A stretch of 64,000 nt of DNA from a virus. Lineage: Duplodnaviria > Caudoviricetes. The DNA lies in the IMG/VR virus record IMGVR_UViG_3300008450_000030, positions 2,208 to 66,207 of that record; one strand, 5' to 3'. Below are positions 15,920 to 35,011 of this stretch, piece by piece. The position numbers were made by a program, and so were the translations under genes. The notes under the pieces are model-generated. The model made no database searches, was not told the DNA's origin, and saw only the letters and a list, made by a program, of their open reading frames with translations. Every line of letters begins with the position of its first letter. The stretch's first letter is position 1.

Positions 15920-16235
15920 ATGCACCGTGGTTAGCGGGAAGTTGCCCGAAATGTACCAGAAAAATATATGGGGGTGGGGGGTGTACGAAAAGAAAAATGA
16001 TGGGGGTGGGTTCTGGAATACAGATTTCCGTAGGAGAGTATAGAAAAAGTGAAGGGGGGTGGGGGGTGAAATGAAAAACTCGAATCTTTGTGATCGAGTG
16101 AGCGGAACACTGTGTATGGGGGCCCCACCTCCTTGCCCTGCCAAAATGGGGTCATGGGGTCTTTCTACCCGTCAACCCTAACATTGTGAGGCCACTCCCC
16201 ACCATTCCACACCTGAATTATTCTTTACGGGAAAC

Positions 16236-16264
16236 TTGAATTGTACCCTATTTTGCGATATAAT
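16236..16264 (+). promoter_or_regulatory. Sigma70 promoter for the first early gene
   Basis: TTGAAT-17 nt-TATAAT. Confidence 0.75.
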
Positions 16265-16343
16265 AGCGGCATGGCATCGGAATCGTTGTCATCCGGTTAG
16301 GCGGTCCCCCTAACATTGTTAGAGTAATTAGAAGGGTTTCATC

Positions 16344-16973
16344 ATGTCTCAAGTTCAAGTAATCCGCGCAGATGCTGCGCCCGAGTTGGCCCCTCTCCGC
16401 GCTGCTATCGCAGACGCTGCCGCTACTGTCTACGGGGCCAAGATTCGGTACGCCGAATCGTTGAATCTTTCGTTCGGCGTGACTCTCGAAGCACTCGAAG
16501 TCAAGTCGGCGGATGGTTCGATAATTGATCTGCGCCCGTCTGTCACGGGTTGGTTTGATGTCGAACATGGTTCGACGGCCCCTGATGCTAAGCCCATCTT
16601 GACCGAGAAGGAGGCTTTGTATAACGTGCTCAAGGGTTCAAAGCACTCGAACCCGTCGAAAGTCTGGGCAGATATCCGAAAGTATGGTCGCGCAGATGCG
16701 ATGAAACAGGCAGAGGGCATCTGTCTGGCCGGAATCAAAGCGCAGTCCATTGTCATGCCAGAGGGCACAACACGGCCTGACCCGTTGGCGGCAGATGCTA
16801 AGGGCGCGAACGACTCGAAGTCAATCCGTCTGCGAATGATGGATGATCTGAAAGTGCTCTACAAAGCAGCGAAGCGCGAGAAGTCGCTGAGCACGGAGGA
16901 GGCAAACTGTCTGGTGCATATCAGTAGCGCGCTGATTGCACTCGGCGTTGATCTGTCAACCCTCACGAAGTAA
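16344..16973 (+). CDS. Hypothetical early protein (monocistronic)
   Basis: 209 aa with its own promoter and terminator; no family recognised. Confidence 0.8.
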   Translation: MSQVQVIRADAAPELAPLRAAIADAAATVYGAKIRYAESLNLSFGVTLEALEVKSADGSIIDLRPSVTGWFDVEHGSTAPDAKPILTEKEALYNVLKGSKHSNPSKVWADIRKYGRADAMKQAEGICLAGIKAQSIVMPEGTTRPDPLAADAKGANDSKSIRLRMMDDLKVLYKAAKREKSLSTEEANCLVHISSALIALGVDLSTLTK

Positions 16974-17040
16974 TCTAGCAAGACGGGACCGCCTAACATT
17001 GTTAGGCGGTTTCCCCCTAAACCCTCTCCCGCTAGCCTCA

Positions 17041-17066
17041 AGCCCGCCACTCGGCGGGCTTTTTTT
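17041..17066 (+). terminator. Rho-independent terminator
   Basis: AGCCCGCC-ACTC-GGCGGGCT followed by a T run. Confidence 0.9.
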
Positions 17067-17123
17067 CGTCCGTCATTTTGCTTCACGGCCTAACAATGTT
17101 AGGCCATCGTCGGCCCGCTTCGC

Positions 17124-17395
17124 GGACCAGTTCTCTGTGCGGGGGTAGGGGCAAGCATGGCGTCTAGGCGCGTTACGTTTCCGCAGCGGCTAACAATGTT
17201 AGGCCGCGCTGGACCAGTTCTCTGTGCGGGGGTAGGGGCAAGGCGGCGTTACGTTTTTGCCTGTGGTAGGGGATACCCTAGTTTTCGATCACTATCTGTA
17301 GTTTGTTACGTTTTTCAGAGCCAGATGAGAATGATTCTCACAGTAGGCCCAGAAACGTAACGCCACCGCTGGACCAGTTCTCTGCGCGGGGGTAG
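17124..17395 (+). repeat. Three direct repeats GGACCAGTTCTCTGYGCGGGGGTAG
   Basis: Copies at 17124, 17211 and 17371; the first two extend identically through GGGCAAG. Confidence 0.9.
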
Positions 17396-17740
17396 TGCCT
17401 AACAATGTTATGTTTTTGGGCGTTATGTTACGTTTTTGGCGTCGTTGTTACGCCACACTTTTCGCTAAGTCCTTGTCAGCAAAGGGATGTTACGTTGTTA
17501 CGTTTTTGGCGAAAATGTATGGAAGTCCACCAAGCCGGAAAAAAGCATAACGGACAGCAAGCGCAATTCGCACTACACGTTCAATTTTCTGGCGCCATTC
17601 ATATATTTTCTAAAAAACGTAACAACGTAACATACCCCATTTTTCGTCTCTAAGTCATTGATTTATATGGCGATGTTGCGTTACGTTTTCCGTTACGTTT
17701 TCATTTCCCCCTCGTAACATCAGAACGCGCCAAACGTAAC
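17172..17740. other. Putative replication origin: GTTACG iterons, 21-bp inverted repeat, IHF site
   Basis: 14 GTTACG/CGTAAC hexamers; perfect inverted repeat 17487-17507 / 17613-17633; IHF consensus match at 17651-17663. Confidence 0.6.
17326..17340. promoter_or_regulatory. Fur-box-like 7-1-7 palindrome
   Basis: TGAGAAT-G-ATTCTCA versus the Fur consensus TGATAATnATTATCA. Confidence 0.5.
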
Positions 17741-17804
17741 GCGACCCCCCTCTTGCTCCCGCTCTTGCTTCCGCCCCAACTTTACTCTGCGTAGTATAGT
17801 TTGC

Positions 17805-17833
17805 TTGACATTCATACCTTTTTGTGTTATACT
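17805..17833 (+). promoter_or_regulatory. Strong sigma70 early promoter
   Basis: TTGACA-17 nt-TATACT with extended -10 TG. Confidence 0.9.
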
Positions 17834-17909
17834 TTAGGTTGAGTGGGAATTTCTCCTACTCGCGGCAACTACCCCTAACAAAGTTAGGTGTACATCAGAA
17901 AGGTTAGCG

Positions 17910-18149
17910 ATGAGCAGCAGATCAGGAAACAACCCAGACCTAGACTGGGGCGAGTGCGGGCTGTGTGGAGATGACGTATCAAGCGAGAGGCTTCGGCTTG
18001 GGTACGTACTGTGCCTATGCTGCGGTGAGCAAGCAGCAGTCGAGGCCCGCAGTTCATGGTGCGTTGTGCCCATGAACAAGAGCAACTACATCCTAGTCAC
18101 CGACCTAACTTTGTTAGCCCAACTCAACCCAAAGAGGACCACACCATGA
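17910..18149 (+). CDS. DksA/TraR-like C4 zinc-finger protein
   Basis: CGLCGDDVSSERLRLGYVLCLCCGE. Confidence 0.65.
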   Translation: MSSRSGNNPDLDWGECGLCGDDVSSERLRLGYVLCLCCGEQAAVEARSSWCVVPMNKSNYILVTDLTLLAQLNPKRTTP

Positions 18150-18631: not shown

Positions 18632-18915
18632 TATTCGTAGACCTGAAGAAATTCAAGAGCCCTTCGCTCATCAGCCCCGTGTTCCACCAGCCTAACTTTG
18701 TTATGCGGGACCATAAGCACAGGGACGCTCTGCTCCGACTCATAGAGTTGGAGGTTGGTGTGCAGCAGATGGGGCAGTACATCCTGCAGTTGATGCGTAA
18801 CCCCGAGGCAACGGACGAGCAGATCACGACTGTCCGTACCATGTACGTTGACATCTACAAGAAGTTTTCCGAGGCACAGGATGCCGTGTTCAAGTACAAA
18901 GGAGAAACGAAGTGA
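18628..18915 (+). CDS. Hypothetical early protein
   Basis: GTG start after GGAGG, overlapping the upstream TGA. Confidence 0.6.
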   Translation: MIFVDLKKFKSPSLISPVFHQPNFVMRDHKHRDALLRLIELEVGVQQMGQYILQLMRNPEATDEQITTVRTMYVDIYKKFSEAQDAVFKYKGETK

Positions 18916-19091: not shown

Positions 19092-19092
19092 G

Positions 19093-19206
19093 ATGCACGG
19101 ACTTATGCAAGATGGCATCGAGGATCGGGAGACACGTAGGCTTTCTATGTGGTTCGCTACCCGCTTGGGCGACTTCCGAGAGTGGCAACCAAAAAGGGAG
19201 GCCTAA
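19093..19206 (+). CDS. Small hypothetical protein (37 aa)
   Basis: MHGLMQDGIEDRETRRLSMWFATRLGDFREWQPKREA; its stop TAA lies inside the palindrome at 19203. Confidence 0.5.
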   Translation: MHGLMQDGIEDRETRRLSMWFATRLGDFREWQPKREA

Positions 19207-19208
19207 CA

Positions 19209-19367
19209 ATGTTAGCCTTTCACGTTGAAGGCAGGAGTCGAGGCGGGGACTTGTCCATCGCCGAGATCATTGAGTCACGCACCGCTAGAGGTGCGCGTCA
19301 ACAGTTCGCTGCTCTCTACCCCACGCTTAGGGGTATCAGGGTATACCGACTGCAGACTATTAACTAA
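19209..19367 (+). CDS. Small hypothetical protein
   Basis: ATG inside the palindrome, after a GGGAGG RBS. Confidence 0.55.
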   Translation: MLAFHVEGRSRGGDLSIAEIIESRTARGARQQFAALYPTLRGIRVYRLQTIN

Positions 19368-19398
19368 TCAACTAACCAACCTATCAGGAGAAACGATC

Positions 19399-20553
19399 AT
19401 GTGGGGAAACAACGGAATGAACAGCACCATGCGGGCACTCCCGTATGTGCGCGAGTACTCACTCGCAAAGCGCATCCTTGACTCGACCACCCCCGTGCGC
19501 GGGAGTGGGGTGAACGCTGGCATCAAGCCATTGGGGGCACGTAACAATGTTACGGCGTACTCGGTGCGGGCGGGTACTGTTGACGCTACGGACGTAGAGT
19601 TTATGCTCTACAAAACACCCGTCATTACGTTCAAGAAAGACGGGCGCATCCTCGTAAGGATGGAGCGGTGGAACACGAACACCACCCGTGAATTCATAAA
19701 CTCTATCCTCAACGTGTCCTGCTACGCCAAGAGTGGCAAGAGCGTGATGGAACTACACGGAGGCGGTGGTTTGTCCGTCATCCCGCCGACTGGATTGGTG
19801 CTGCGCTACGATGTAGATGCAACACCTCCACGCCTTGTCTTCGACGCCAAACCCAAGTTCACGGGCTATGCGGTCAGCCGAGCGAAGGCTAACAAAGTTA
19901 GGGCGCAGTTCTCTGAGTTCGCCAAGTACTTCAAGGGGTGTGTGAATCTGCGCTCCGTCGAGATGATCGAGAAGTCGTACTACGGAGGAGGGCACACGAA
20001 GTACAACGCCATCGAGTACACGGGCGCTGAGATCGCCGAGGTTCTCGGTGATGAGGATGAGAGTACCGCTGTGGTGGCGAACCCTTGGACTGAGTGGGAA
20101 TTGCTCAAGCACAGGCCCTTCCACCAATTCCGTCCGATGGGGTACAACACGTACGCCAACTGGATCGCCGAGTACAACGCCAAGTGTGCGGAGTTCTTAG
20201 ACCTCATCAAGAATGACCAGCCCGACGACACGAAGACACAGAACTTCTACAAGGCTATGGTCATCTGCATGATCCTCAACGGGAAAAAGCCCAACAAGGA
20301 AACTCCCCACGTAGTTGTTCGTAACCTCACCACCATCGTGGTCGAGAACTTCGAGACTATCTGGAAGATGTACTTCGCTAAGGATATTCTGGAAGAAGTA
20401 GTGCTCAAGGATGGGGTCACACCCAATCAGACCTACACCAACTGGATGTGGATGTATGACCAAGTGAAGGTAGCCGAGGCCGAGGCGCAAGAGCGCAAGT
20501 ACAAGGGCGAACTGCCGTTCAACCCCGGCGAGAGCGTCCAGTACTTTGCTTGA
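19399..20553 (+). CDS. Hypothetical early protein (about 384 aa)
   Basis: Start reassigned to the ATG at 19399 after ATCAGGAG. Confidence 0.8.
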   Translation: MWGNNGMNSTMRALPYVREYSLAKRILDSTTPVRGSGVNAGIKPLGARNNVTAYSVRAGTVDATDVEFMLYKTPVITFKKDGRILVRMERWNTNTTREFINSILNVSCYAKSGKSVMELHGGGGLSVIPPTGLVLRYDVDATPPRLVFDAKPKFTGYAVSRAKANKVRAQFSEFAKYFKGCVNLRSVEMIEKSYYGGGHTKYNAIEYTGAEIAEVLGDEDESTAVVANPWTEWELLKHRPFHQFRPMGYNTYANWIAEYNAKCAEFLDLIKNDQPDDTKTQNFYKAMVICMILNGKKPNKETPHVVVRNLTTIVVENFETIWKMYFAKDILEEVVLKDGVTPNQTYTNWMWMYDQVKVAEAEAQERKYKGELPFNPGESVQYFA

Positions 20554-20579
20554 ACTTTACTTTCCGTAGTAAAGTTTGC

Positions 20580-20608
20580 TTGACATTCACACCTTATTGT
20601 GTTATACT
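20580..20608 (+). promoter_or_regulatory. Strong sigma70 early promoter (near-copy of the 17805 promoter)
   Basis: TTGACA-17 nt-TATACT within about 70 bp nearly identical to 17778-17850. Confidence 0.9.
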
Positions 20609-20728
20609 TTAGGTTGAATGGGATTTCGTGTGTTAGTTGTTAGTTGTTAGTCGTTAGTCCGCGCCCTACCCCTAACAAAGTTAGGCGGGCATCATTAGTG
20701 TTCATTAGTGTTTATCAGGAGTTAGAAA

Positions 20729-21796
20729 ATGGCTGAGATCAAGTTCGGTAAGACTGTCACCCTCAAGCAAGCCGCACGGCTCATCTTCACCAACCCAGAG
20801 GTTCGGTTCCTTGTTCGCGGCGAACCAGGAATTGGGAAGTCCTCGCTGTTGGAGGACGTTGCTGCTCAGGCTGGTTGCGAGTATGCCTATATCGACGTAC
20901 CAAACATGGATTTGGGTGACATCGCGATGCCCGTGATAGATCACGTGGAGAAGGTCACTCGCTATTACCCTAACGCTAGGTTCGGACTTCACACGGGTCG
21001 CCCGATGGCGATCATGTTGGACGAGTTCAGCAAGGGCATGGATGCGGTCAAAAACATGTTGCATCCCATGTTGGAAAAGAAGAACCCGCGACTGGCCGAC
21101 AAGCCAATCGTTAAGGGTACTTACGTATTCCTGACTGGCAACCTGTCTTCGGACGGGGTGGGCGATGTGGTCAAGTCTCACTCGCAGAACCGCATCGTTG
21201 AGATCGTGGTGCAGAAACCTACAGCGGAGGAGTGGATCGAGTGGGCGATCCAGAAGGGGACCATCGAGCCTGAGATTATTGCGTGGGTCAATCAGTACCC
21301 CCACGCTCTTGCTTCGTACACGGATGCCGCACAAGCGGACAACCCGTACATCTACCACCCACGGCGTACCCAGAATGGGTTCGTCACCCCGCGCTCACTC
21401 GAAACGGCATCTAACATTGTTAGCACCCGTGGGTTGAACGACACCGACGCTGTTATCGCCGCTCTGATTGGTGCTTTGGGTGAGAGCGCAGCGCGTGACG
21501 TTCAGGCGTACATCGAGTTCAGCGATCAACTCCCATCGTGGGACGCGATGATTAAGAACCCTAAGACTACGACTGTACCGACTAGCCCTGCTGCCTGCGC
21601 CATTGTGGTGTTCGGTGCTATCGCACGTATGACCAAGGAGACTATCGCTCCGTTCATGGAGTACCTCGAACGCTTCGATGCCGAGTGGCAAGCAGTCTTT
21701 GCGATCAACATCGCCAAGGCTACGGCTAAGCAGAGCATCGCCTTCTCTAGTAAGGCGTTCGCCGAGTGGGTCGCTAAGAATCAGGACCTGTTGTGA
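20729..21796 (+). CDS. MoxR/dynein-related AAA+ ATPase
   Basis: Walker A GEPGIGKS, Walker B IMLDE, sensor TGN, TPRS motif. Confidence 0.9.
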   Translation: MAEIKFGKTVTLKQAARLIFTNPEVRFLVRGEPGIGKSSLLEDVAAQAGCEYAYIDVPNMDLGDIAMPVIDHVEKVTRYYPNARFGLHTGRPMAIMLDEFSKGMDAVKNMLHPMLEKKNPRLADKPIVKGTYVFLTGNLSSDGVGDVVKSHSQNRIVEIVVQKPTAEEWIEWAIQKGTIEPEIIAWVNQYPHALASYTDAAQADNPYIYHPRRTQNGFVTPRSLETASNIVSTRGLNDTDAVIAALIGALGESAARDVQAYIEFSDQLPSWDAMIKNPKTTTVPTSPAACAIVVFGAIARMTKETIAPFMEYLERFDAEWQAVFAINIAKATAKQSIAFSSKAFAEWVAKNQDLL

Positions 21797-21981
21797 AAGT
21801 TTTCTGGCGGTACAACATGACGCCAAATAATTGGCGTGATGGAGATACACCCTTCATGGTAGAAGTATGCCGTGTTACGGGTAAGGGCGAATACGGAATC
21901 GAGGTAATTGCTGAGATTCCGTATGAAGAGTTGAGCATTGCCAAGGTAATGATTGAGTTAGCAAACAACGAGGAGTCCTAA
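21793..21981 (+). CDS. Small hypothetical protein
   Basis: 62 aa between the ATPase and VWA genes. Confidence 0.6.
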   Translation: MKVFWRYNMTPNNWRDGDTPFMVEVCRVTGKGEYGIEVIAEIPYEELSIAKVMIELANNEES

Positions 21982-21983
21982 CA

Positions 21984-23243
21984 ATGTTAGAAGAACGCAA
22001 ATTGCAGAAGGCCAAGATCAGCCTGATGCGTAACCCACGGTTCGCGCTGTGGTCTGGCATCCTGATGGTGGGTAAGACCTCCATTGTGGATAACGTAGCA
22101 ACAGCATCGACAAACGGACGCGACGAGGTGTATGGTCGCGGGTTCGTCAAGGAACTTTCCGACAAGGAGTTGTGCTTCCTTGTACTGCACGAGTCCTTGC
22201 ACAAGGCTCTTCGTCATCTCACTACGTGGAAGAAACTCCACGATGAGAACCACAAGTTGGCGAACGCTGCCTGTGACTACGTGATTAACCTCATGCTGAT
22301 CGAACTCGACCCGAACGGCGAAACCATCGTCATGCCTAAGATCAAGGATGGTCCGCTGAAGGGTCAGCCGATGGGTCTGATCGACGCTCGGTTCAAGGGG
22401 ATGAACGCCAAGCAGGTGTTCGACATTCTCAAGCAGGAGCAGAAGGAAGGTGGCGACGAGGGTGACGAGCCCATCGACGGAAGCGGGCGTGTTCCCAGCA
22501 AAGGCGACGGCAATGGCGACCCGAAGGGGGGCGCAGGGTTGGACGAGCACGACTGGGATGGTGCTGCCGAGATGACTGCCGACGAGCGCAAGCAGTTGGA
22601 GCGTGAAGTCGATCAGGCTATTAGGCAAGGGCTAATGGCTGAGAAGAAGGTAGGCAAGGGTGGCGGTGGGATGGGCCGCGAGTTGATGGACCTGATGGAG
22701 CCGAAGATCAACTGGCGCGATGCGTTGCGCGAGTTCGTCAAGGCTACGTGCAACGCCAAGGATACGTCCTCTTGGCGTAAGGTGAACCGCCGCTACTTGG
22801 CCGACGATGTGTATATGCCCTCGCTGGTTGGCGAGAAGGTTAGGCATATCGTTGTAGGCATTGACACCTCAGGCTCCATCGGTGACAAGGAGTTGGCCGA
22901 AGCATTGGCCGAGGTCAAGGCTATCTCCGAGGAAGTCAACCCTGATGTGGTGGACTTGATCTACTGGGACGGTGGCGTTGCTGCCCATGAAATCTACGAG
23001 GGCGCTGATGTATCTAACATTGTTAGTTCCACCAAGCCGAAAGGTGGTGGGGGTACTTCGCCATCTTGTGTGTCTACTTACCTCAAGAATAAGCACATCG
23101 TTCCAGAGTGCGTTCTCATGCTCACAGATGGATACGTGGGTAGCGATTGGGGTACGGGATGGACGGCTCCTGTGCTCTGGGTCGTCTTTGGTGGCAATAC
23201 TGTTGTCGCGCCTAACGGCAAGACAATTCATGTTCGGGATTAA
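21984..23243 (+). CDS. Metallopeptidase-like + VWA protein (DUF2201 type)
   Basis: HESLH, ANAACDYVIN, MIDAS DTSGS, GGGT, LTDG. Confidence 0.88.
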   Translation: MLEERKLQKAKISLMRNPRFALWSGILMVGKTSIVDNVATASTNGRDEVYGRGFVKELSDKELCFLVLHESLHKALRHLTTWKKLHDENHKLANAACDYVINLMLIELDPNGETIVMPKIKDGPLKGQPMGLIDARFKGMNAKQVFDILKQEQKEGGDEGDEPIDGSGRVPSKGDGNGDPKGGAGLDEHDWDGAAEMTADERKQLEREVDQAIRQGLMAEKKVGKGGGGMGRELMDLMEPKINWRDALREFVKATCNAKDTSSWRKVNRRYLADDVYMPSLVGEKVRHIVVGIDTSGSIGDKELAEALAEVKAISEEVNPDVVDLIYWDGGVAAHEIYEGADVSNIVSSTKPKGGGGTSPSCVSTYLKNKHIVPECVLMLTDGYVGSDWGTGWTAPVLWVVFGGNTVVAPNGKTIHVRD

Positions 23244-23475: not shown

Positions 23476-23533
23476 CACCACGGGCGCACGATAACAACAC
23501 CCTTGTTATCGTGCCTAACAATGTTAGCAACCA

Positions 23534-23685: not shown

Positions 23686-23768
23686 ACTATTTCTTAGGAC
23701 CAGTTCCCCAAGTTCCCCAACCCGCCTAACAAAGTTAGGTATCACATTTCAATCATCAGGAGAAACGT

Positions 23769-24632
23769 ATGAGTATTAGCGCATCAGCAGTATTAGTGGA
23801 GTTGAACATCTCTGTGTGGCCCGCATCAAAGATTGATCGGGAGACTACAGACCGAGTTAACTTCGACGCATCAGCCGTGTCGAACGCATCGCAAACCAAG
23901 AAGAACCTTTTCGCTGGCACGGGTCTGCGTAAGGACATCGAGAAGTTCGCCGCTCGTGTCCGTCTGTACCACAACCTCAACACGTTGCCGTGGGCAGACA
24001 AGGGTGAGCGACTCGCGCCGACCAAGATTTTCATGGAGTACAAGACGGCGATGAACGCCTTCGAGTCTCAGTTCGGTGCTATGTGCAACAACTTCTACGC
24101 GGAGTACCCGCGTCTGGTTGCGGAAGCACCCACAAACCTCGGCAAGTTGTTCAAGGCTGAGGACTACCCACCCCTTGATGAGGTGCGGTGCAAGTTCGGG
24201 TTCCGTCGCTCGACTAACCCCCTGTCGGATGCTGGCGACTTCCGCCTAGACATACCAGCGCAGGACTTGGTAGAGATTCAGGCGGCGTACGAAAAGCAGT
24301 TCGAGGAGCGGCTCGCCGACGCGATGAAGGCTCCGTGGGATCGACTGCACAAGATGTTGACGGGCATCAGCGAGAAGTTGACCGACGACACGGCTGAGGA
24401 TAGCGACGTACCCAAGAAGCGGTACTACGACTCCCTCATCACCAACCCGCTTGAGTTGTGCGAGTTGTTGACCAAACTCAACGTGACCAACGATCCAAAG
24501 TTGGAGGAGGCACGGCGTCAACTTGAGGTAACAATGTTAGGTGCAGATATCGAGAGGATCAAGGAGGATGCAGATGTACGTAGCAACGTGAAGTCCAAGG
24601 TCGATGCGATCCTTAGCAAGTTCGAGTGGTAA
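23769..24632 (+). CDS. DUF3150-like phage protein
   Basis: SAVLVELNISVW...TLPWADKGERL...LNVTNDPKLEEAR. Confidence 0.65.
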   Translation: MSISASAVLVELNISVWPASKIDRETTDRVNFDASAVSNASQTKKNLFAGTGLRKDIEKFAARVRLYHNLNTLPWADKGERLAPTKIFMEYKTAMNAFESQFGAMCNNFYAEYPRLVAEAPTNLGKLFKAEDYPPLDEVRCKFGFRRSTNPLSDAGDFRLDIPAQDLVEIQAAYEKQFEERLADAMKAPWDRLHKMLTGISEKLTDDTAEDSDVPKKRYYDSLITNPLELCELLTKLNVTNDPKLEEARRQLEVTMLGADIERIKEDADVRSNVKSKVDAILSKFEW

Positions 24633-26102: not shown

Positions 26103-26571
26103 AGAAAAGAAAGATGAAGTTCGGGCGTTCCTAAAGGAGAGTCCGCATATCAGTTTGCAGAACGTAGCGTTGCTGTATGACGTTACGTATGCGCAGGTAT
26201 ACGCACTCAACCGTGAAGTCCACGGCGTTAAGCCGAGGGCCAAGAAGGCTGCGAAGAAGCCAGCGGTCAAGGCCAAGGCAAAGATGGGCCGCAAGGCTAT
26301 TCTTGCGAAGGCGGCGGATCAGTATCCCATGCCGCTGCTCCCCCCTGCGCCAGTAATGGTTTACGGGCCTGACATGGTGAACCAGCCACCGCACTACACG
26401 TATGGCGGCATCGAGACTATCGACTTCATCGAGGCCAAGGACTTGAACTACAACTTGGGCAATGTGGTTAAGTACGTAACCCGTAGCGGACTCAAGGGTA
26501 CGCGCATCGAAGACCTCAAGAAAGCCAAGTGGTACTTGGAGCGCGAGATCGGTTCGCTGCTCGGCGACTAA
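26092..26571 (+). CDS. DUF3310 (SaV-like) domain protein
   Basis: DMVNQPPHY..GGIETIDFI...GNVVKY..R...EDLKKAKWYL. Confidence 0.85.
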   Translation: MLAKEKKDEVRAFLKESPHISLQNVALLYDVTYAQVYALNREVHGVKPRAKKAAKKPAVKAKAKMGRKAILAKAADQYPMPLLPPAPVMVYGPDMVNQPPHYTYGGIETIDFIEAKDLNYNLGNVVKYVTRSGLKGTRIEDLKKAKWYLEREIGSLLGD

Positions 26572-26597
26572 CAAAGTTAGGGTTTCCTCTCCCACTA

Positions 26598-26621
26598 AGC
26601 CACCTTCGGGTGGCTTTTTTT
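26598..26621 (+). terminator. Rho-independent terminator
   Basis: AGCCACC-TTCG-GGTGGCT followed by a T run. Confidence 0.9.
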
Positions 26622-26625: not shown

Positions 26626-26653
26626 TTGACTTTGTAAAGGGTTGTGCTACGAT
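26626..26653 (+). promoter_or_regulatory. Promoter for the replication operon
   Basis: TTGACT-16 nt-TACGAT with extended TG. Confidence 0.6.
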
Positions 26654-26681: not shown

Positions 26682-27008
26682 ATGCCCGCAACACCTGAGG
26701 CCAAGGTCAAGGCCAAGATCAAAGCCATTCTCAAGGCACACAACGCCTACTACGTTATGCCCATAGGTACGGGCTACGGCAATTCAGGCGTCCCCGACTT
26801 CATCTGCTGCGTCAATGGTCAGTTCCTCGCTATCGAGGCTAAGGCTGGCAAGGGCAAGCCGACTGCATTGCAGGACAAGAACATCCGAGACATACGCACC
26901 GCTGGCGGCTACGCTATGGTGGTCAACGAAGACAACCTCGAAGAACTCGAAACGCTGATCGCTAACTATGTTAGGTGGGGTGAGAGTTATCAAGATCGGC
27001 ACGTATGA
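26682..27008 (+). CDS. VRR-NUC domain nuclease (Holliday-junction resolvase-like)
   Basis: TPEAKVK...GVPD...AIEAK...PTALQ. Confidence 0.9.
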   Translation: MPATPEAKVKAKIKAILKAHNAYYVMPIGTGYGNSGVPDFICCVNGQFLAIEAKAGKGKPTALQDKNIRDIRTAGGYAMVVNEDNLEELETLIANYVRWGESYQDRHV

Positions 27009-28816
27009 TTCTGACAATCGACTTCGAGACTTTCTACTCGCAGGAGTTCAGCCTAACAAAGTTAACCACGGAGGAGTACATCCGCTCTTCCGAGTTCGAG
27101 GTTATCGGTGTTGCAGTACAGGTAGACGATGGGGAGCCCGAGTGGTTCAGCGGCGATGCTTTGAAGACCCATGCGTTCCTGAGCAAATTCGACTGGGGTA
27201 ACTCCACAGCGGTAGCGCACAACGCTGTGTTCGACGGGGCTATCCTTAATTGGTTGTACGGTATACGCCCTAAGGGGTGGGTGGACACCCTCAGCATGGC
27301 ACGTGCTCTGCACGGTACTGAAGTAGGCGGTAGTCTCAAGGTGCTAGCCGAGCACTACAAGATAGGCGTGAAGGGCACGGAGGTAGTCGATGCCATTGGG
27401 CTGAGGCGTGAGCAGTTCGGTGCTGAGCAACTAGCGCAGTATGGCGAGTACTGCAAGAACGATGTGGCCCTGACTTGGAAGTTGTACAAGGCGATGGGTG
27501 ACTTCCCCGCAGTTGAGTTGAGCCTGATTGATATCACGCTGCGGATGTTCACCGAGCCCGTACTGCAGTTGGACAGGATGGCATTATCCGCGCACCTTAT
27601 CCGTATAAAGGCGCACAAAGTCCAACTCCTTGGCGAGTTCGACAAAGACACGCTGATGAGCAACCCCAAGTTTGCCGGGGCCCTAACAGAGTTAGGGGTC
27701 ACTCCTCCTATGAAGGTTAGCCCAGCGAACGGCAAGCAGACCTATGCCTTCTCTAAGTCCGACGAAGAGTTCACGGCACTACTTGAGCACGACAATCTGA
27801 GGGTGCAAGCCCTTGTCGCTGCACGGCTAGGTACTAAGTCCACCCTCGAAGAGACACGAACCGAGCGGCTGATAGGGACCGCCGAGCGAGGCCCTTTGCC
27901 AGTTCCCCTCCGGTACTACGCTGCCCATACTGGGCGATGGGGTGGCGACGACAAGTTGAACCTCCAGAACCTCCCACGGGGTTCGCTGCTCAAGAAGTGC
28001 ATCATCGCGCCAATGGGCTACTACGTCCTTGACTCAGACTCTTCCCAGATTGAAGCGCGTACGCTGGCATGGCTAGCGGGGCAGACTGATCTAGTCGAAG
28101 CGTTTGATCGGGGCGAGGATGTGTACCGCATTATGGCTGCTCGCATATACACCAAGGCCGAAGCAGACATCACGAAGGAAGAACGCTTTGTGGGTAAGAC
28201 AACCATCCTTGGCGCAGGGTACGGGATGGGTGCGGCTAGGTTCCAAACGCAACTCAAGACGTTCGGCGTAACCATTGAGTTGGATGAGTGCCAGCGGATC
28301 ATCGACACGTACCGCACAACGTACGGCAGTATAAAAAAGTTATGGGCCGAGGCGGGTAAGGCTATAGATGCCATCATGGAAGACAAGCACACCACACTAG
28401 GAGTGAACGGAGTGCTGAACGTAGACGGCAAGAAGGGCATCCTTCTGCCTAACGGCCTACGCCTAAAGTACCCCAATCTACGCAACCATCAGGACGACGA
28501 TGGGGATACTGAAACTGTGTACGACACGAGGAAAGGGAAAGCCACTATCCTCACGCGCATTTATGGGGGTAAGGTCGTAGAGAACGTGTGCCAAGCACTC
28601 GCTCGAATTATCATTGGCGACCAGATGCTCATCGTCAATAAGAAGTACCGTGTTGTGATGACTGTGCATGATGCCATTGCGTGTGTAGTGCCAGAGGAAG
28701 AGATACATACGGCCAAAGAGTACATCGAAATGTGTATGAGATTACGCCCATCGTGGGCGCTGGATTTACCACTAAATTGTGAGGCTGGATATGGAGAAAG
28801 TTACGGCGATTGTTGA
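27005..28816 (+). CDS. polA: Family A DNA polymerase with 3'-5' exonuclease
   Basis: Exo DFET and HNAVFD; motif A DSSQIEAR; motif B KTTILGAGYG; motif C VHDA. Confidence 0.95.
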   Translation: MILTIDFETFYSQEFSLTKLTTEEYIRSSEFEVIGVAVQVDDGEPEWFSGDALKTHAFLSKFDWGNSTAVAHNAVFDGAILNWLYGIRPKGWVDTLSMARALHGTEVGGSLKVLAEHYKIGVKGTEVVDAIGLRREQFGAEQLAQYGEYCKNDVALTWKLYKAMGDFPAVELSLIDITLRMFTEPVLQLDRMALSAHLIRIKAHKVQLLGEFDKDTLMSNPKFAGALTELGVTPPMKVSPANGKQTYAFSKSDEEFTALLEHDNLRVQALVAARLGTKSTLEETRTERLIGTAERGPLPVPLRYYAAHTGRWGGDDKLNLQNLPRGSLLKKCIIAPMGYYVLDSDSSQIEARTLAWLAGQTDLVEAFDRGEDVYRIMAARIYTKAEADITKEERFVGKTTILGAGYGMGAARFQTQLKTFGVTIELDECQRIIDTYRTTYGSIKKLWAEAGKAIDAIMEDKHTTLGVNGVLNVDGKKGILLPNGLRLKYPNLRNHQDDDGDTETVYDTRKGKATILTRIYGGKVVENVCQALARIIIGDQMLIVNKKYRVVMTVHDAIACVVPEEEIHTAKEYIEMCMRLRPSWALDLPLNCEAGYGESYGDC

Positions 28817-28994: not shown

Positions 28995-29656
28995 AGCCAA
29001 TCATCTGGTCGTTCAGTAGTCTGAAGACATTCCAGCAGTGCCCCAAAAAGTACTACCACACCAAGGTAGCGAAGGACATTGTTGAACCTGATACGGTAGC
29101 AACCTTATACGGGAAGTCTGCCCATACCGCCGCAGAAGACTTCATTCGGGAGGGCAAACCAATCGAGCCCAAGTTCGATTACATGAAGTCCACGCTAGAT
29201 GAGTTGGCAAAGATTCCCGGCGAGAAGTTGGTCGAGGTCAAGTTAGGGCTAACGAAAGACTTGAAAGCCTGTGACTTCAACGCCCCAGACGTATGGTGGC
29301 ACGGCATCGCCGACTTGGTTGTGCTGGACCATGAACGGCAGTTGGCCTACTCGGTGGACTACAAGACCAGCAAGAGCGCACGGTATGCGGACGTTAAGCA
29401 GTTGGACCTTGTGGCGGTGGGTATCTTCGCCAAGTTCCCTAACATTGTTAGAGTGAAGTCTGCTTTGATATTTGTAGTGAGCAAAGAGTTTGTTAGGGCT
29501 GAGCACCATGTAAATATGATTCACAAGTACATGGAGAAGCCAGCGCAAGATGTGGCGCGGATCGAGCAAGCGTATGAGTCGGGTGTTTGGAATCCAGTCC
29601 AAGGCCCGTTGTGTAAGTTCTGCTCTGTTTCCTCGTGTATGTATAACCGCAACTAG
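28991..29656 (+). CDS. PD-(D/E)XK exonuclease, Cas4/RecB-like with Fe-S cysteines
   Basis: WSFSSL...CPKKY, GIAD, VDYKT, QL, CKFC..C. Confidence 0.9.
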   Translation: MKPIIWSFSSLKTFQQCPKKYYHTKVAKDIVEPDTVATLYGKSAHTAAEDFIREGKPIEPKFDYMKSTLDELAKIPGEKLVEVKLGLTKDLKACDFNAPDVWWHGIADLVVLDHERQLAYSVDYKTSKSARYADVKQLDLVAVGIFAKFPNIVRVKSALIFVVSKEFVRAEHHVNMIHKYMEKPAQDVARIEQAYESGVWNPVQGPLCKFCSVSSCMYNRN

Positions 29657-30194: not shown

Positions 30195-30378
30195 CTGGGA
30201 GAAGGCACTGGAGATAACAAAGTTATTGGAGGTAGTCAAAGAAGACTGCCGCCGAGAGTCTTTGGCGATGCTGCTCAAAGCCGAGGGGTTTCAACTGCCA
30301 CGGGCTGTACCTACAGATACGCTGCATGACTTACATAAACTTGCCGAGTTCATCAGGCTGCACTCAAGGATACTTTAA
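30187..30378 (+). CDS. Small hypothetical protein
   Basis: GTG start after GAGGA, in the frame of track ORF 30100-30378. Confidence 0.5.
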   Translation: MISWEKALEITKLLEVVKEDCRRESLAMLLKAEGFQLPRAVPTDTLHDLHKLAEFIRLHSRIL

Positions 30379-30686: not shown

Positions 30687-30687
30687 G

Positions 30688-31071: not shown

Positions 31072-31080
31072 GAGAGAAAT

Positions 31081-31570: not shown

Positions 31571-31940
31571 CCTACGCAAAGCAGCAGAGGCTGCACTGGC
31601 TGCAATGAACTCCGGGCCTGACGTTGACCCGATCTTTGCTGGTGAAACCATCACCGCCCTCCGCGCTGCCCTCGCGCAGCCTGAGCAAGACTTGCAGTTG
31701 GTTGCCAACCTGTTGAAAGAGTATGGGCTGGAAACGCTGGAAGTTATTGCCGCACTCAAAACGCAGCCTGAGCAGGAGCCTGTGGCGGTGGTAGCAATGG
31801 ATGTTTCAGGTGTGCATATGTCCTATGGTGGTCAATACCTTGGACAGAAGCCTGATACCAAGATTGCAATGCTGCTGAAAGACTTGCCAGTAGGGACACA
31901 TCTTTACGTTGCTGTAGGGATGGGGGTCAGTAATGAGTGA
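31563..31940 (+). CDS. Hypothetical modular protein (AQPEQEPVA type)
   Basis: Starts MSDLRK; contains repeated QPEQ. Confidence 0.7.
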   Translation: MSDLRKAAEAALAAMNSGPDVDPIFAGETITALRAALAQPEQDLQLVANLLKEYGLETLEVIAALKTQPEQEPVAVVAMDVSGVHMSYGGQYLGQKPDTKIAMLLKDLPVGTHLYVAVGMGVSNE

Positions 31941-32295
31941 CCTACGCAAGATGGCGCGGGATGCTGGGTTCAACACAGAGTTTGATGACTATGTGATAGA
32001 CCATTGGCAACGTTTTGAAAAGTTTGCTCGACTCATAAATGCTGAAGCCCTCGCGCAGCATGAAGAGCCTGTACTTTGGGTGATGCCAGACGGCAAGACT
32101 GCTGATAAGTGGGCACTTCAGTTTTATGGGGGTCAAGCAGGAGAACCTTTATACAAGGCTCCTCCCCAGCGCAACACCTTGCCGTTGTCAGATGACGAGA
32201 TCAAGTGCATCAAACCAATATGCGCTGACTTTGTGAGTTTCCGTGCTGGTGTGCGACACGCCGAGCGAGAGCATGGAATTGGGGGTGAGAAATGA
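31933..32295 (+). CDS. Hypothetical modular protein
   Basis: Starts MSDLRK; ends AEREHGIG. Confidence 0.7.
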   Translation: MSDLRKMARDAGFNTEFDDYVIDHWQRFEKFARLINAEALAQHEEPVLWVMPDGKTADKWALQFYGGQAGEPLYKAPPQRNTLPLSDDEIKCIKPICADFVSFRAGVRHAEREHGIGGEK

Positions 32296-32639: not shown

Positions 32640-32804
32640 ATGGACAAGCCGAAGCCCGACCTCATCAAGAAAGCGATGATGACCGAGATGGATCGACGGC
32701 TTGATCTAATGCGGGAGTACCTGCTTATGCAGGAGAAGATGACCCCGCTTGCTGCGCTTGAGTACAACGTGTTGATGGCTAAATTAACTAAGGAGACAAA
32801 ATGA
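32640..32804 (+). CDS. Small hypothetical protein (54 aa, not in track)
   Basis: MDKPKPDLIKKAMM... exactly fills the gap. Confidence 0.55.
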   Translation: MDKPKPDLIKKAMMTEMDRRLDLMREYLLMQEKMTPLAALEYNVLMAKLTKETK

Positions 32805-33019
32805 GTGTAGATAACGGTGGACCAGCGTTTCCCTTGGACCTGACGGTTGAAGGCGATCACCGCTGGGGGTACGGCATGATGCTGAGAGATTACTTTGCAG
32901 CGAAGGCGCTGCCAAGTTTAATCACAAGATTTGCCCCTGATGATTCGGGTATAGAAAGAGCAGCAACGCTAGCGTATGCCTACGCCGACGCAATGATCGA
33001 AGCAAGGAAGGTGAAATAA
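32801..33019 (+). CDS. Common small phage protein
   Basis: GGPAFP...[12 protein letters not shown]...[12 protein letters not shown]. Confidence 0.8.
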
Positions 33020-33276
33020 TGCAGACCGACAGCCCAGCAGAAATCCTTATGCGTTTGTACTCCCAGAAAAGTGATCTGGCAGCAGACGCAGCAGCAGAGA
33101 TCATTCGCCTACGCCAAGCACTACGCTGGCAGCAGGATCGGGAAGGTAGAATTGGCACACATAGCCCCGACTGCTATACGTTCGGGCATAACCATTACGA
33201 GTGCGCCCTCCGCAAGATCAAGTCGCTGGAGGAGGATCATAGGTTTGCACAGGCGCTAGGCCCGTGCGGTAAATAA
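33019..33276 (+). CDS. Hypothetical protein
   Basis: [19 protein letters not shown], a putative metal-binding motif. Confidence 0.7.
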
Positions 33277-33286
33277 CGGAGTCATC

Positions 33287-33562
33287 ATGCCCTACGTCAA
33301 CAAGCCCCGCCCGTACAAAAAAGAGTACGCACAACAAGTCGCTAGGGGTGAAGGTCCAACACGAGCGAAGCGAGGGCAAGCACGTGCCGAAATGGACAAA
33401 AAGGGGATTGACCGCACAGGTAAAGACATAGATCATACGGTCCCACTGTCAAAAGGTGGAACCAACGCACCGAGCAACCTAAAGCTGAAAGCACCGAGCG
33501 CAAATCGTTCGTTCAGCAGGAATTCGGACCACACCGTGAAAGTCAACAAGCCTAAAAAATGA
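33287..33562 (+). CDS. Small HNH-type nuclease protein
   Basis: KDIDHTVPLSKGGTN...NL....SANRSF. Confidence 0.8.
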   Translation: MPYVNKPRPYKKEYAQQVARGEGPTRAKRGQARAEMDKKGIDRTGKDIDHTVPLSKGGTNAPSNLKLKAPSANRSFSRNSDHTVKVNKPKK

Positions 33563-34956
33563 ACCTATCAGAGTACAAGTGGCCCCGTCCGCACGGGTTC
33601 ACACCGTTCGATCATCAGAAAGTTACATCAGAATTCCTCATCGCCAACCGCAAGGCCTTCTGCTTCAACGAGCAGGGTACGGGGAAGACAGCATCAGTGA
33701 TTTGGTCAGTAGACTATTTGATGCAAGTAGGGTTAGTGAAGCGTGTGTTAGTGATCTGCCCGCTGTCAATCATGAAGTCGGCATGGCAGAACGATTTGTT
33801 CAAGTTTGCGTTGCACCGCAGCGTTGCGGTTGCTTATGGTTCGGCTAAGAAGCGTAAAGAGATCATCGACTCCGGTGCAGAGTTCGTCATCATCAATTTC
33901 GATGGTGTGGGCATCGTGAAGGAAGAGATCATGGCTGGCGGGTTCGATCTTGTCGTAGTAGATGAAGCATCAGCATATAAGAACGCACAGACAACTAGAT
34001 GGAAGACCCTTCGTGACATCATGAAGGTGGTCAAGGGGCTGTGGATGTTGACGGGTACTCCCGCCGCTCAGTCCCCCGTAGACGCATACGGTTTAGCCAA
34101 GTTGGTTAACCCTAAGTCAGTTGCCCCGTTCTTGGGGCAGTTCCGCGACACCGTGATGTTCAAGGTGAGCGACTATCGGTACATCCCCAGACCCGAAGCG
34201 AAGCACATAGTCCACAAGATTCTGCAGCCAGCGATCAGGTTTGAGAAGGCCCAGTGCCTAGACCTCCCACCAGTTATCCACGTGGATCGGGACGCACCGC
34301 TCACTTCACAGCAGTATGCGTACTACAAGACGCTCAAGAAGGAAATGTTCTTCGAGGCGGCTGGGGAAGAAATCTCTGCCGTCAACGCTGCGGTGAAGAT
34401 CAACAAACTACTGCAGATTTCCAGCGGCGCGGTCTACACCGACAACAAGAGCGTCATCGAGTTCGACGTAAGCAACAGGCTTAACGTAGTACAAGAAGTG
34501 ATTGAGGAAGCAAGCCACAAGGTGCTTGTGTTCGTTCCGTTCACTCACACGATAGCCCTACTGAAGAACCACCTAGACAAGAACAACATCAGTTGCGAAG
34601 TCATCAACGGTTCGGTATCGGTGAACAAGCGATCTGAGATCGTGAGGATGTTCCAAGAGAATGAGTCCCCAAGAGTGCTCATCATCCAACCGCAAGCAGC
34701 CTCCCACGGGCTAACACTAACGGCAGCGAACACAATCATTTGGTACGCTCCGTGCTCTAGTGTGGAAACGTACCTTCAAGCCAATGCACGTATTGACCGC
34801 CCCGGTCAGGTCAACAACATGACCATCGTGCATATATCGGGCTCCCCGGTTGAGGCCAAGATGTACGCACTTCTGCGTAACAACGTAGACAACCACCAGC
34901 ATGTGATTGATCTTTACCGCCAAGAAATTTCTGACGCGCCCGTAGAAATCGCTTGA
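33559..34956 (+). CDS. SNF2-family superfamily 2 helicase
   Basis: QGTGKT, VVDEAS, LTGTP, HGLTLT, QANARIDRPGQ. Confidence 0.92.
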   Translation: MNLSEYKWPRPHGFTPFDHQKVTSEFLIANRKAFCFNEQGTGKTASVIWSVDYLMQVGLVKRVLVICPLSIMKSAWQNDLFKFALHRSVAVAYGSAKKRKEIIDSGAEFVIINFDGVGIVKEEIMAGGFDLVVVDEASAYKNAQTTRWKTLRDIMKVVKGLWMLTGTPAAQSPVDAYGLAKLVNPKSVAPFLGQFRDTVMFKVSDYRYIPRPEAKHIVHKILQPAIRFEKAQCLDLPPVIHVDRDAPLTSQQYAYYKTLKKEMFFEAAGEEISAVNAAVKINKLLQISSGAVYTDNKSVIEFDVSNRLNVVQEVIEEASHKVLVFVPFTHTIALLKNHLDKNNISCEVINGSVSVNKRSEIVRMFQENESPRVLIIQPQAASHGLTLTAANTIIWYAPCSSVETYLQANARIDRPGQVNNMTIVHISGSPVEAKMYALLRNNVDNHQHVIDLYRQEISDAPVEIA

Positions 34957-34980
34957 CAATGTAAAGAGTCTTGCTAAGAT
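34953..34980 (+). promoter_or_regulatory. Promoter for the SSB/primase operon
   Basis: TTGACA-16 nt-TAAGAT with extended TG; palindrome at 34990 overlaps the AGGAG RBS. Confidence 0.7.
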
Positions 34981-35011
34981 AGACCTCCCGTAACAAAGTT
35001 AGGAGATTAGG

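Follow-up and report, generated by a model that had tools for sequence, protein, structure and literature searches.

The window analysed here is a stretch of 64,000 nucleotides (nt) from a virus of the Caudoviricetes, covering positions 2,208 to 66,207 of the IMG/VR record IMGVR_UViG_3300008450_000030, and the element in question is a short palindrome of the form CTAAC-N3-GTTAG that recurs about 30 times across its early genes. The whole genome comprises 66,207 bp, and its ends overlap by 114 bp, which looks like assembly closure. It has a podophage-like layout, where the minus strand carries the genes of TerS, TerL, the portal, the tail proteins and a virion protein of 3060 amino acids (aa), and the plus strand carries an arm spanning 16.3-39.4 kb. 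This arm codes for an AAA ATPase and a DUF2201 metallopeptidase/VWA-like protein, and moreover for a family-A DNA polymerase (polA), a PD-(D/E)XK nuclease, a helicase and a primase-helicase. The sequencing runs that contain DNA of the window are labelled chiefly as freshwater metagenomes, and no RNA run was listed among them. As described below, the analysis supports the motif as a real, selected, protein-type recognition site limited to the early-transcribed arm.

The palindrome array of the early arm

The array begins at the divergent junction of terS and the early genes with a copy carrying one mismatch (CTAACATTGTGAG, 16178-16190), about 50 nt 5' of P1, the sigma-70-type promoter of the first early gene (TTGAAT-17-TATAAT, 16236-16264; the promoters, terminators and genes of the arm given here all lie on the plus strand). 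In the 5' leader of this gene a perfect copy (16310-16322) is located 46 nt past the -10 element and 22 nt before the ATG. The gene itself (16344-16973) codes for a protein of 209 aa that belongs to no known family and is our candidate for a palindrome-binding dimer; 20 nt past its stop codon a further perfect copy (16993-17005) is situated within a longer hairpin, 5' of the intrinsic terminator of this unit (17040-17071, a 9-bp stem with a T-run). Two perfect copies in the non-coding DNA behind it (17090-17102 and 17190-17202) are each followed by a 32-nt repeat, and a copy with one mismatch (ending in GTTAT, 17399-17411) is preceded by the third such repeat. The second promoter, P2 (TTGACA-17-TATACT, 17805-17833), lies within a duplicated 74-nt module, and the perfect copy in its leader (17875-17887) stands 42 nt past the -10, with 22 nt left to the ATG at 17910. 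Amid the small early open reading frames (ORFs) that follow there are a perfect copy with a TTT centre (18105-18117) and, further on, one with a single mismatch (18692-18704). A perfect copy is then found 10 nt 5' of the start of a 442-aa ORF (19203-19215), and this ORF contains both a symmetric double variant (GTAACAATGTTAC, GTAAC..GTTAC, 19541-19553) and another perfect copy (19889-19901).

The second copy of the 74-nt module holds promoter P3 (TTGACA-17-TATACT, 20580-20608), whose leader has a perfect site (20672-20684) 64 nt past the -10 and 45 nt before the ATG of the ATPase gene. Within the latter gene a perfect copy reads as the peptide SNIVS (21411-21423), and the next one embeds the start codon of the VWA-like gene (21978-21990), an arrangement kept in lineages with 13-, 14- and 15-bp sites. 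Further perfect copies lie within the VWA-like gene (23014-23026), between it and the gene of a 287-aa protein (23515-23527), and 31 nt 5' of the start of the latter (23726-23738). Copies with one mismatch occur at the 3' end of the 287-aa gene (24528-24540, 64 nt before the next start) and twice within the gene of a 309-aa protein (24778-24790 and 25250-25262). Perfect copies follow at the 3' end of the gene of an 82-aa conserved basic protein (26043-26055, 37 nt before the next start) and over the stop codon of the DUF3310 gene (26568-26580), the latter 16 nt 5' of the second intrinsic terminator (26597-26621) and at a position kept in most relatives. Behind this terminator transcription can restart from a promoter with the elements TTGACT-16-TACGAT (26626-26653). 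A perfect copy with a TAT centre is located 31 nt 5' of the polA start (26962-26974), one with a single mismatch 48 nt into polA (27053-27065), and one with perfect arms and an AGA centre deeper within the same gene (27683-27695). The PD-(D/E)XK nuclease gene contains a perfect copy (29439-29451), and a second symmetric double variant is found at 30214-30226 (ATAACAAAGTTAT, ATAAC..GTTAT). The last copy of the arm (34990-35002, one mismatch) begins 10 nt past the -10 of a promoter with the elements TTGACA-16-TAAGAT (34953-34980), so that it covers the likely start site, and its right arm enters the Shine-Dalgarno sequence, 10 nt before the ATG.

Frequency, coding frame and consensus

In the window the exact motif CTAACWWWGTTAG occurs 19 times, and none of 100 dinucleotide shuffles gave any copy, while CTAACNNNGTTAG with at most one mismatch occurs 28 times against a mean of 1.46 and a largest value of 6 in the shuffles. 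The 28 comprise the 19 perfect copies, the AGA-centred copy at 27683 and eight copies with one mismatch; the two symmetric double variants at 19541 and 30214 bring the number to 30. All but one of them are placed at 16178-35002, and the exception is at 48449, which agrees with the count and the coordinates of a first-pass annotation made from the sequence of the window alone. No additional perfect copy was seen in the 2.2 kb of the genome outside the window. The lone late copy (48449-48461) is perfect and lies within the gene of the 3060-aa virion protein; it is improbable by chance, as about zero would be expected in 64 kb, and it has no late-region counterpart in five near-complete relatives.

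The first-pass annotation had also placed copies inside the ATPase, VWA, polA and Cas4-like genes and called for a comparison with codon-shuffled controls, and the placement is confirmed. Intragenic copies are present in the genes of the ATPase (21411), the VWA-like protein (23014), polA (27053 and 27683) and the PD-(D/E)XK nuclease (29439), and about one third of the copies in the window are mid-gene. Only frames 0 and 1 occur, as TAA would be read in frame 2. In 20,604 nt of coding sequence of the arm, 8 perfect copies stand against a mean of 0.13 (maximum 2) in 300 synonymous-codon shuffles, and the copies with at most one mismatch number 13 vs a mean of 1.59 (standard deviation 1.23, maximum 6). 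The protein sequences thus do not account for the intragenic copies.

For the consensus and the comparisons with related loci, a search with the VWA-like protein was used, which found 212 relatives in IMG/VR, of which 80 loci were kept (cited below as L001 and so on). Together with the window these loci gave 939 core sites, 678 of them unique. Across the lineages the conserved unit is CTAACA-(A/T)1-3-TGTTAG, which in the form of the window reads CTAACA-W-TGTTAG. The inner A and T are conserved at 93-98%, conservation is lowest at the outermost C and G, and next to the site there is a weak additional C/G. On the plus strand of the genome, GTTAG is about twice as frequent as CTAAC (89 vs 47), and many early genes of the window and the loci start in the context ..AGG(A)(G)TTAGA(A/T)ATG; part of the right half-site thus serves also as ribosome-binding-site context. 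Searches of the available literature gave no description of this motif, its half-sites returning only primer noise.

Conservation and turnover among relatives

Among 5-N-5 palindromes this family ranks first in most of the 80 relatives, and at least three core sites are present in 73 of them. In all five near-complete relatives (60-65 kb), the 11-14 perfect sites are all located in one segment of 11-14 kb, with 0-1 hits for the reversed-pattern control, so that the restriction to the early arm seen by the first-pass annotation is kept beyond the window. The spacer between the half-sites varies in length. CTAAC-N3-GTTAG is found in 37 loci, CTAAC-N4-GTTAG in 34, CTAAC-N5-GTTAG in 2 and a mixture in 1, and seven have fewer than four core sites, where L071 was entered under N4, and L023 and L060 are among the seven with too few core sites. 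These three represent single lineages with changed half-sites, namely CTGACA..TGTCAG in L023, GTAACA..TGTTAC in L071 and CTTATA..TATAAG in L060. The palindrome array is entirely absent in the other five of these seven (L026, L035, L043, L076 and L079). Comparing the presence and absence of ORF clusters with these five negative loci separated no groups, given partial coverage and some clusters that are alternative-frame ORFs.

Within a genome the spacer length is nearly uniform, but among close relatives it has switched repeatedly. Of 66 genomes, 51 have a spacer class that is uniform to 90% or more and 63 one that is uniform to 80% or more, and on the trees of ten arm proteins the class needs 5-11 changes. 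For example, L042 (13-bp sites) and L052 (14-bp sites) share 84-89% nucleotide identity, and their orthologous sites differ by one spacer base. L045 is 97-98% identical to L042 yet shows the 14-bp form at the start of the VWA-like gene. L021, with 13-bp sites, is 82-87% identical to the site-free L035, and at five orthologous places the 13-mer differs between the two at about 4-7 positions with flanks about 90-95% identical, as counted from printed alignments.

The position of the sites likewise points to selection acting on the DNA as such. In nearly all lineages a site encloses the start codon of the VWA-like gene, and in the 14- and 15-bp classes the left arm is offset by one or two A, giving CTAACA(A)(A)ATGTTAG. 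Column 257 of the ATPase alignment bears a site in both 13-bp (30) and 14-bp (11) lineages, and therefore different codons are needed on its left side. In the VWA-like gene the sites of the 13- and 14-bp classes are at columns 493 vs 456, and in the 287-aa gene at columns 289 vs 166, so about one site per gene is kept while its place shifts. These alignments indicate that sites are re-created and not merely inherited. Moreover, gaps between sites average 550-850 bp in every lineage, and the spacing is evener than random, with a mean coefficient of variation (CV) of 0.59 in 45 loci vs 0.88 under random placement.

Sites at promoters, leaders and terminators

The arm has five consensus sigma-70-type promoters and two clear intrinsic terminators (17040 and 26597), and each of the four best sigma-70 matches in it has a site 10-64 nt past the -10. 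The same tendency is seen across the relatives: for 95 of the 212 strong promoter-like matches in all loci (not de-duplicated), a site begins 20-80 nt downstream, and the sites of 74 unique leaders are placed 55 +/- 12 nt past the -10 and 23 +/- 10 nt ahead of the start codon. As for the other end of transcription units, 73 unique strong terminator-like hairpins were found in site-bearing spans, and 35 of them have a site ending 0-20 nt upstream vs 1.8 expected. The site before the terminator of the DUF3310 gene is kept in most loci, and according to RNAalifold on 21 loci the stem of this terminator shows compensatory changes, the palindrome none. Sites are also present behind the first-gene terminator in at least 18 loci, a count that covers 14-bp sites only.

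Two further ideas on this placement were tried and rejected. An alternative hairpin formed by the right arm of the site and the pre-terminator sequence is visible in L021 and L006, and was not recovered by RNAalifold on the 21 loci; and an activator box with the -10 as partner was discarded, as no position within 60 nt on either side exceeds 0.5 bit outside the motif.

Several repeats accompany the sites. The 74-nt module with its sigma-70 promoter is duplicated at 17778-17851 and 20553-20626 with 91% identity, and the palindrome with its flanks behind the module is repeated too (17869-17897 and 20666-20694, 90% identical), so that promoter-leader-site cassettes appear to be copied as units. 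The 32-nt direct repeat occurs three times (17124-17155, 17211-17242 and 17371-17402; two identical, one 84%), and each adjoins a palindrome. In the non-coding DNA between the first-gene terminator and P2 (17170-17750), the unit GTTACGTTTT(T) recurs about 15 times, in either orientation (repeat families D8 and D9; inverted pairs I1, I17 and I18), and it has TGTTA in common with the palindrome half-site. Among the motif-free loci, L043 has a similar TGTTAC/GTAACA cluster in a non-coding, origin-like region (4857-5400), the only other motif found in them. The repeats at 17170-17750 resemble either the iterons of a replication origin or another array of binding sites.

Duplex or hairpin recognition

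As a 13-bp palindrome can be read either as a DNA duplex or as a folded strand, the variation of the sites was considered with respect to both. In the 13-bp lineages the centre is AAT in 173 sites vs ATT in 133, and in leaders 16 vs 16. Among the 678 unique sites the flanks have no excess complementarity beyond the C/G at -1/+1; some intergenic copies of the window do have complementary flanks, but with no such excess over the 678 sites an extended hairpin was rejected as a general feature. Of 562 sites, 141 have a broken outer pair, with A.G (49) and G.G (34) far more frequent than U.G (5), so that wobble is not preferred, and covariation of the inner A/T is never seen. No partner element at a fixed distance was found within 60 nt on either side. 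Judged from these substitution patterns, recognition looks like the reading of a duplex by a symmetric binder.

The first early gene as candidate binder

The first early gene forms a separate unit with its own promoter, a leader site, a site 20 nt past its stop codon and a terminator. Its family, of about 170-210 aa, has two subfamilies that align over the full length. Subfamily A, to which the protein of the window belongs, is found in 15 loci, all of them with 13-bp sites; subfamily B is found in 16 loci, of which 14 have 14-bp sites and two, L002 and L004, have 13-bp sites. On the tree of this gene the spacer class changes once. Over the same 31 taxa it changes six times on the tree of a 79-aa protein, four on that of the ATPase, five each on those of the VWA-like and the 287-aa protein (p287) and three on that of the 309-aa protein (p309), and with fewer taxa three times for the 442-aa protein (p442, 24 taxa), five for the 82-aa protein (24 taxa), and four each for TerS (23 taxa) and TerL (22 taxa). 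The first early gene, which the first-pass annotation had listed among its candidate binders, is thus the sole one of the eleven genes tested whose tree tracks the spacer class. The hidden Markov model (HMM) of its family has no match in L043 and L079, the two motif-free loci that cover the region. Among 32 copies of the gene, a site lies at most 80 nt past the stop in 27 and at most 80 nt before the start in 12. In L006 there are two tandem paralogues of it (4183-4755 and 5442-5930), each behind a sigma-70-type promoter and a leader palindrome of its own.

At least 578 homologues of the first-gene protein exist, and every one is labelled hypothetical. Its structure model is confident, with a mean pLDDT (predicted local distance difference test) of 85.4, and two copies of the protein are predicted to form a symmetric homodimer, with a score of 0.69 vs 0.01 for the best control. 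The mark used for such scores is reached by 20 of 30 proteins solved as one-chain pairs and by 1 of 23 solved as single chains, and the homodimer runs have at least 89% of contacts in common with a partner pLDDT of at least 81. Matches of this protein to DUF3102 and Phage_Repressor_c at 0.80 in Atlas were set aside, since they are within the range of chance matches.

Two other proteins of the arm come into question. The 82-aa basic protein (25854-26102) had been proposed by the first-pass annotation as a binder of the ribbon-helix-helix (RHH) type, and this candidate is disfavoured as determinant of the spacer length: it is 98.5% identical in L042 and L052, which differ in spacer class, it is present in the motif-free L043, L026 and L035, and its tree shows the five class changes given above. 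Nor was the RHH fold confirmed, since Pfam, PHROGs and PDB gave no match and the monomer model has a pLDDT of 64 and no strand. A helix-turn-helix (HTH) protein of 86 aa (36324-36584, HTH_23/HTH_7) is an alternative binder candidate, likewise listed by the first-pass annotation, and is kept in all five near-complete relatives.

Proposed mechanism and alternative explanations

In our favoured interpretation, to which we assign a probability of roughly 0.4, the palindromes are operators of a dimeric first-gene product that restrains early transcription by the host RNA polymerase (RNAP) in a manner like Cro and the stoperators. Here binding of the sites by the first-gene protein, recognition of the duplex, and repression rather than antitermination are all parts that we infer. 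Host RNAP would start early transcription at the strong sigma-70-type promoters. Since a promoter, sites and a terminator of its own set the first gene apart as a unit, its product should accumulate immediately. The dimer would then occupy 25-30 sites over the first 13-19 kb of the plus-strand arm, that is in every 5' leader, before terminators and within genes, and once bound it would reduce or halt the transcription of early genes by host RNAP, its own gene included. The mode of action would combine that of lambda Cro at its operators with that of the elongation-blocking stoperators of Cluster A mycobacteriophages.

Several points weigh against this interpretation. The covariation of gene and spacer class is based on essentially one split in the first-gene tree and is therefore one evolutionary event together with recombination of the other genes; the Fisher p of 5e-7 is a value that ignores relatedness. 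L030 has 13-bp sites and a unique first gene without detectable similarity to the family, and L001, L019 and L025 carry sites and have no match to the first-gene HMM, perhaps because the sequence available for these loci stops short of the gene, as it does for their relative L002. The protein has no recognisable DNA-binding domain, the sequence and profile searches of Pfam, PHROGs and PDB being empty; Foldseek with its model against PDB and BFVD gave no match at E <=0.001, and the best VIA-align Z of 6.0 (root-mean-square deviation 2.0) concerns only a helical hairpin of 50 residues. The sites next to terminators (35 of 73 vs 1.8) are not predicted by a roadblock model and are predicted by a model that acts on RNA or by antitermination. 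In the 14-bp lineages the centre is strand-biased, with AAAT 149 vs ATTT 48 overall and AACT 14 vs AGTT 0 in leaders, a bias that could partly be explained by coding constraints and shared ancestry. Moreover, a rigid dimer should not tolerate half-sites spaced by 1, 2 or 3 bp, yet some genomes mix the classes (L045 4:3, L017 4:14), and a repressor as the very first product would be unusual unless there is a delay or a threshold.

Some of these points are better met if the element acts as a small hairpin (stem 4-5 bp, loop 3-5 A/U), formed either by the transcript or by the non-template strand within the transcription bubble, bound by the same first-gene protein and serving either as a short-range antiterminator like lambda N/nut that is reloaded before each terminator, or as a cleavage or stability signal like those of RegB or Csy4 that removes protective 5' or 3' hairpins. 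Such an RNA element, the main alternative though on the whole rather unlikely, best explains the terminator adjacency with its conserved DUF3310 site, and it fits the position of leader sites 23 +/- 10 nt before the start codon and the sense-strand centre bias of the 14-bp lineages. A loop would also grow from 3 to 4 or 5 nt more easily than a duplex half-site pair could be respaced, and the classes toggle by single-A indels at 97% identity. In lambda the nut element, a hairpin of 15 nt, is located in leaders between the early promoters and the terminators; there are two nut sites per genome, whose RNA is read by a monomeric arginine-rich peptide together with host Nus factors, and among lambdoid phages the N proteins and the boxB hairpins co-vary. 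The placement in leaders past early promoters and before terminators is the same here, the candidate binder opens the early region with a leader site before it and a terminator behind it as N does with nutL, and its covariation with the spacer class parallels that of N and boxB. Unlike nut, there are about 30 sites with a weak hairpin, no boxA partner within 60 nt, and a predicted dimer of 170-210 aa. The stem has two G-C pairs only, and its outer pair is broken in one quarter of sites (141/562) with A.G and G.G far above U.G; no compensatory variation is seen within genomes, and the 13-bp loop is AAT about as often as ATT, leaders included. In addition, some sites lie behind terminators and 5' of P1 and are perhaps untranscribed, and the predicted symmetric dimer and the mid-gene position of about a third of the copies in the window also count against a hairpin.

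Apart from transcription, the phage protein might tile the arm to organise, protect or ratchet in the DNA that enters first, which is the reading of the first-pass annotation and which we consider improbable. It would account for the even spacing (CV 0.59 vs 0.88), with about one site per gene at non-orthologous positions, and for a candidate binder that is the first product made. Pre-early proteins of phage T5 are needed for the second step of its DNA transfer, and the genome ends of N4 lie next to terS in its map; the array begins at the corresponding divergent junction by terS, in an arm with the gene order of Schitoviridae. However, the 114-bp overlap resembles assembly closure and so gives no genome ends, the links with promoters, leaders and terminators are not predicted, some relatives are site-free, and the even spacing may follow gene length. 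The sites of MatP, ParB, Noc and SlmA resemble the array as dispersed and often intragenic palindromes, and matS in particular is a 5-3-5 palindrome with an ..AC-NNN-GT.. core; those sites are chromosomal, tens of kb apart, and read by the host for segregation or division, whereas here there is one site per 0.5-0.8 kb, linked to promoters and terminators, and no ParB_N, the domain expected for dispersed sites of the ParB/parS or KorB type. The links to sigma-70 promoters, leaders and terminators favour early transcription control rather than domain marking of the MatP, Noc or ParB style. A host protein as reader, for example a global regulator, a nucleoid protein or a restriction-modification enzyme, with class changes and site loss following host switches, is very improbable in our view. 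No arm gene besides the first tracks the class, and the sites of L035 differ from those of L021 at 4-7 of 13 positions within flanks about 90-95% identical, as if purged; Type I specificity subunits are known to change spacer length by 1 bp. But phages normally avoid rather than accumulate restriction sites, the class does track a phage gene, and the confinement to one arm with the placement in leaders argues for a phage regulatory role. A host operator with this sequence is not known to us, although a systematic search was not made. Least credible of those weighed here is that the palindromes are hairpin promoters of a phage-encoded RNAP. In N4 and LUZ7, DNA hairpins that are extruded with at least 4-6 bp in the stem and 3-4 nt in the loop serve as start sites of the virion RNAP (vRNAP) and of RNAPII. 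Our genome resembles Schitoviridae in its ATPase/VWA-like pair and in the order of its replication genes, the 3060-aa protein is at the map position of the N4 vRNAP, and the inverted repeats are likewise of the 5-3-5 type with 3-4-nt loops in the early and middle region. The N4-like hairpins are nevertheless GC-rich and directional with specific loop bases, and number 3-13 per genome, whereas here the stem is CTAAC/GTTAG, the loop A-W-T, and the whole strand-symmetric. LUZ7 has hairpin-type start sites with 3-4-nt loops, of which nine are early and at least four are middle (PMC9163698), and N4 hairpins require a G:C closing pair and a G..A loop (PMC4496689). In our genome the AT-rich stems are identical on both strands and therefore give no direction, and the conserved copy at the VWA-like gene contains its start codon, so a start 13-14 nt downstream would miss the gene. 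The search for a T7-type RNAP (PF00940) in the genome gave no match, the control being likewise silent, and the early genes have consensus sigma-70 promoters. For the 3060-aa protein, searches of Pfam, PHROGs and PDB sequences and by tblastn gave LPD39, DarB-like and phiKMV-type matches and no vRNAP.

Comparison with known systems and significance

For operators of a first-gene dimer, the nearest known system is the stoperator array of the Cluster A mycobacteriophages (L5, Bxb1). These phages have 20-30 copies with a 13-bp core, genic as well as intergenic and mostly off promoters, where the repressor blocks elongation (PMC6550527), and motif and repressor co-vary between subclusters (PMC6550527; PMC9283540). 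Alike are the roughly 30 dispersed sites with a core of 13-15 bp, the covariation with a phage gene (here the candidate binder), and a motif that is uniform per genome. The stoperators are asymmetric, oriented with transcription and present in both arms, whereas the palindrome here is confined to the early arm; their repressor is monomeric with two domains (an HTH and a second one), in contrast to a predicted homodimer of no known family; and here the spacer length varies and sites occur at leaders and terminators. Those phages are moreover temperate with integrase or parABS, while neither an integrase (PF00589) nor ParB_N (PF02195, for which the control matched in 11 of 14 genomes) was found in our 66-kb genome.

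Lambda Cro is a small dimer from the first gene of an early operon, which binds palindromic operators and turns down early transcription, its own included, in lytic growth. Cro has six operators at two promoters, compared with about 30 sites here that are mostly past promoters and within genes, and it has no similarity in sequence or fold to the first-gene protein. As for the phiC31 repressor, many copies of one site are located in the early region, and the P1 C1 operators extend over the whole genome, both phages being temperate; none of 22 first-gene proteins matches the phiC31 repressor family Phage_Repressor_c (PF25746) at E up to 1.

Dispersed arrays of regulator sites are known chiefly from temperate phages, such as the stoperators, the P1 C1 operators and the phiC31 repeats. 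A comparable array is found here in an abundant clade of uncultured freshwater podophages with no sign of lysogeny. If it is true that the binder acts on elongating or terminating host RNAP, this would be a new way for lytic phages to time their early genes. A more specific proposal is an undescribed elongation or termination control of lytic phages, in which an immediate-early homodimer of new fold reads about 30 palindromes with a specificity for spacer length (13/14/15 bp), and in which an arms race, for example by cross-repression or exclusion of co-infecting relatives, would drive the turnover instead of housekeeping regulation; taken with all its parts it is possible but rather unlikely. 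The turnover of the array may record conflict between related phages. Spacer switching, the re-creation of sites within coding sequences at the cost of amino-acid changes, and array loss make this a clear natural case of selection at the DNA level over protein coding. The system is also tractable, with a cis element of 13-15 bp and a candidate of about 170-210 aa, and the natural 13- and 14-bp variants can serve as specificity controls.

Genome context and other features

TerL of the window is 48-57% identical to the TerL of DSL-LC04, 023Pt_psg01, the Pelagibacter phages HTVC027P and HTVC023P, and Planktothrix phage Pag-Yong1. The early arm is not common to all these TerL relatives, since the non-structural arm of DSL-LC04 differs, and megablast of the early arm against phages matched no cultured relative. 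For the pair of VWA-like protein and ATPase, the best cultured matches, about 28% identical, come from N4-like phages, and the order of the replication, ATPase and VWA-like genes agrees with that of Schitoviridae. The whole genome is thus seen as a mosaic, with a structural module like that of DSL-LC04, the HTVC023P-type pelagiphages and Pag-Yong1, and an ATPase/VWA-like/replication arm that is like Schitoviridae in content and order, yet has host-type sigma-70 early promoters.

In the 3060-aa virion protein (39661-48843, minus strand), residues about 1020-1260 resemble internal virion or ejectosome proteins of the phiKMV type (PDB 9sfn_G, 'internal virion protein'). The C-terminal third (residues about 2200-3030, some 800 aa) matches a DarB-like PHROG, a family also carried by Serratia phage Parlo, and the protein contains an LPD39 domain as well. 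Its first ~1000 residues have no match, of which the first 699 were searched with Pfam, PHROGs and PDB sequences; residues 700-2200 (1,501 aa) match only the phiKMV-type proteins over about 200 aa, and no Schitoviridae record.

Profile searches assigned p442, p287 and p309 to no known family. The 79-aa protein (17910-18149, plus strand), encoded by the first gene behind P2, has a four-cysteine pattern and homologues in 42 loci; this pattern is reminiscent of TraR/DksA-type zinc fingers, but Pfam gave no match. The region 31933-32295 of the window (plus strand) weakly matches the Ral family of antirestriction proteins, below the cut-off (E 0.0046, 16.9 bits vs a cut-off of 25). In the motif-free L035, five successive small genes at 3757-4713 have the identical start context GAGCAAGCATG, which gives this phage clade a second case of translation-start cassettes that were copied.

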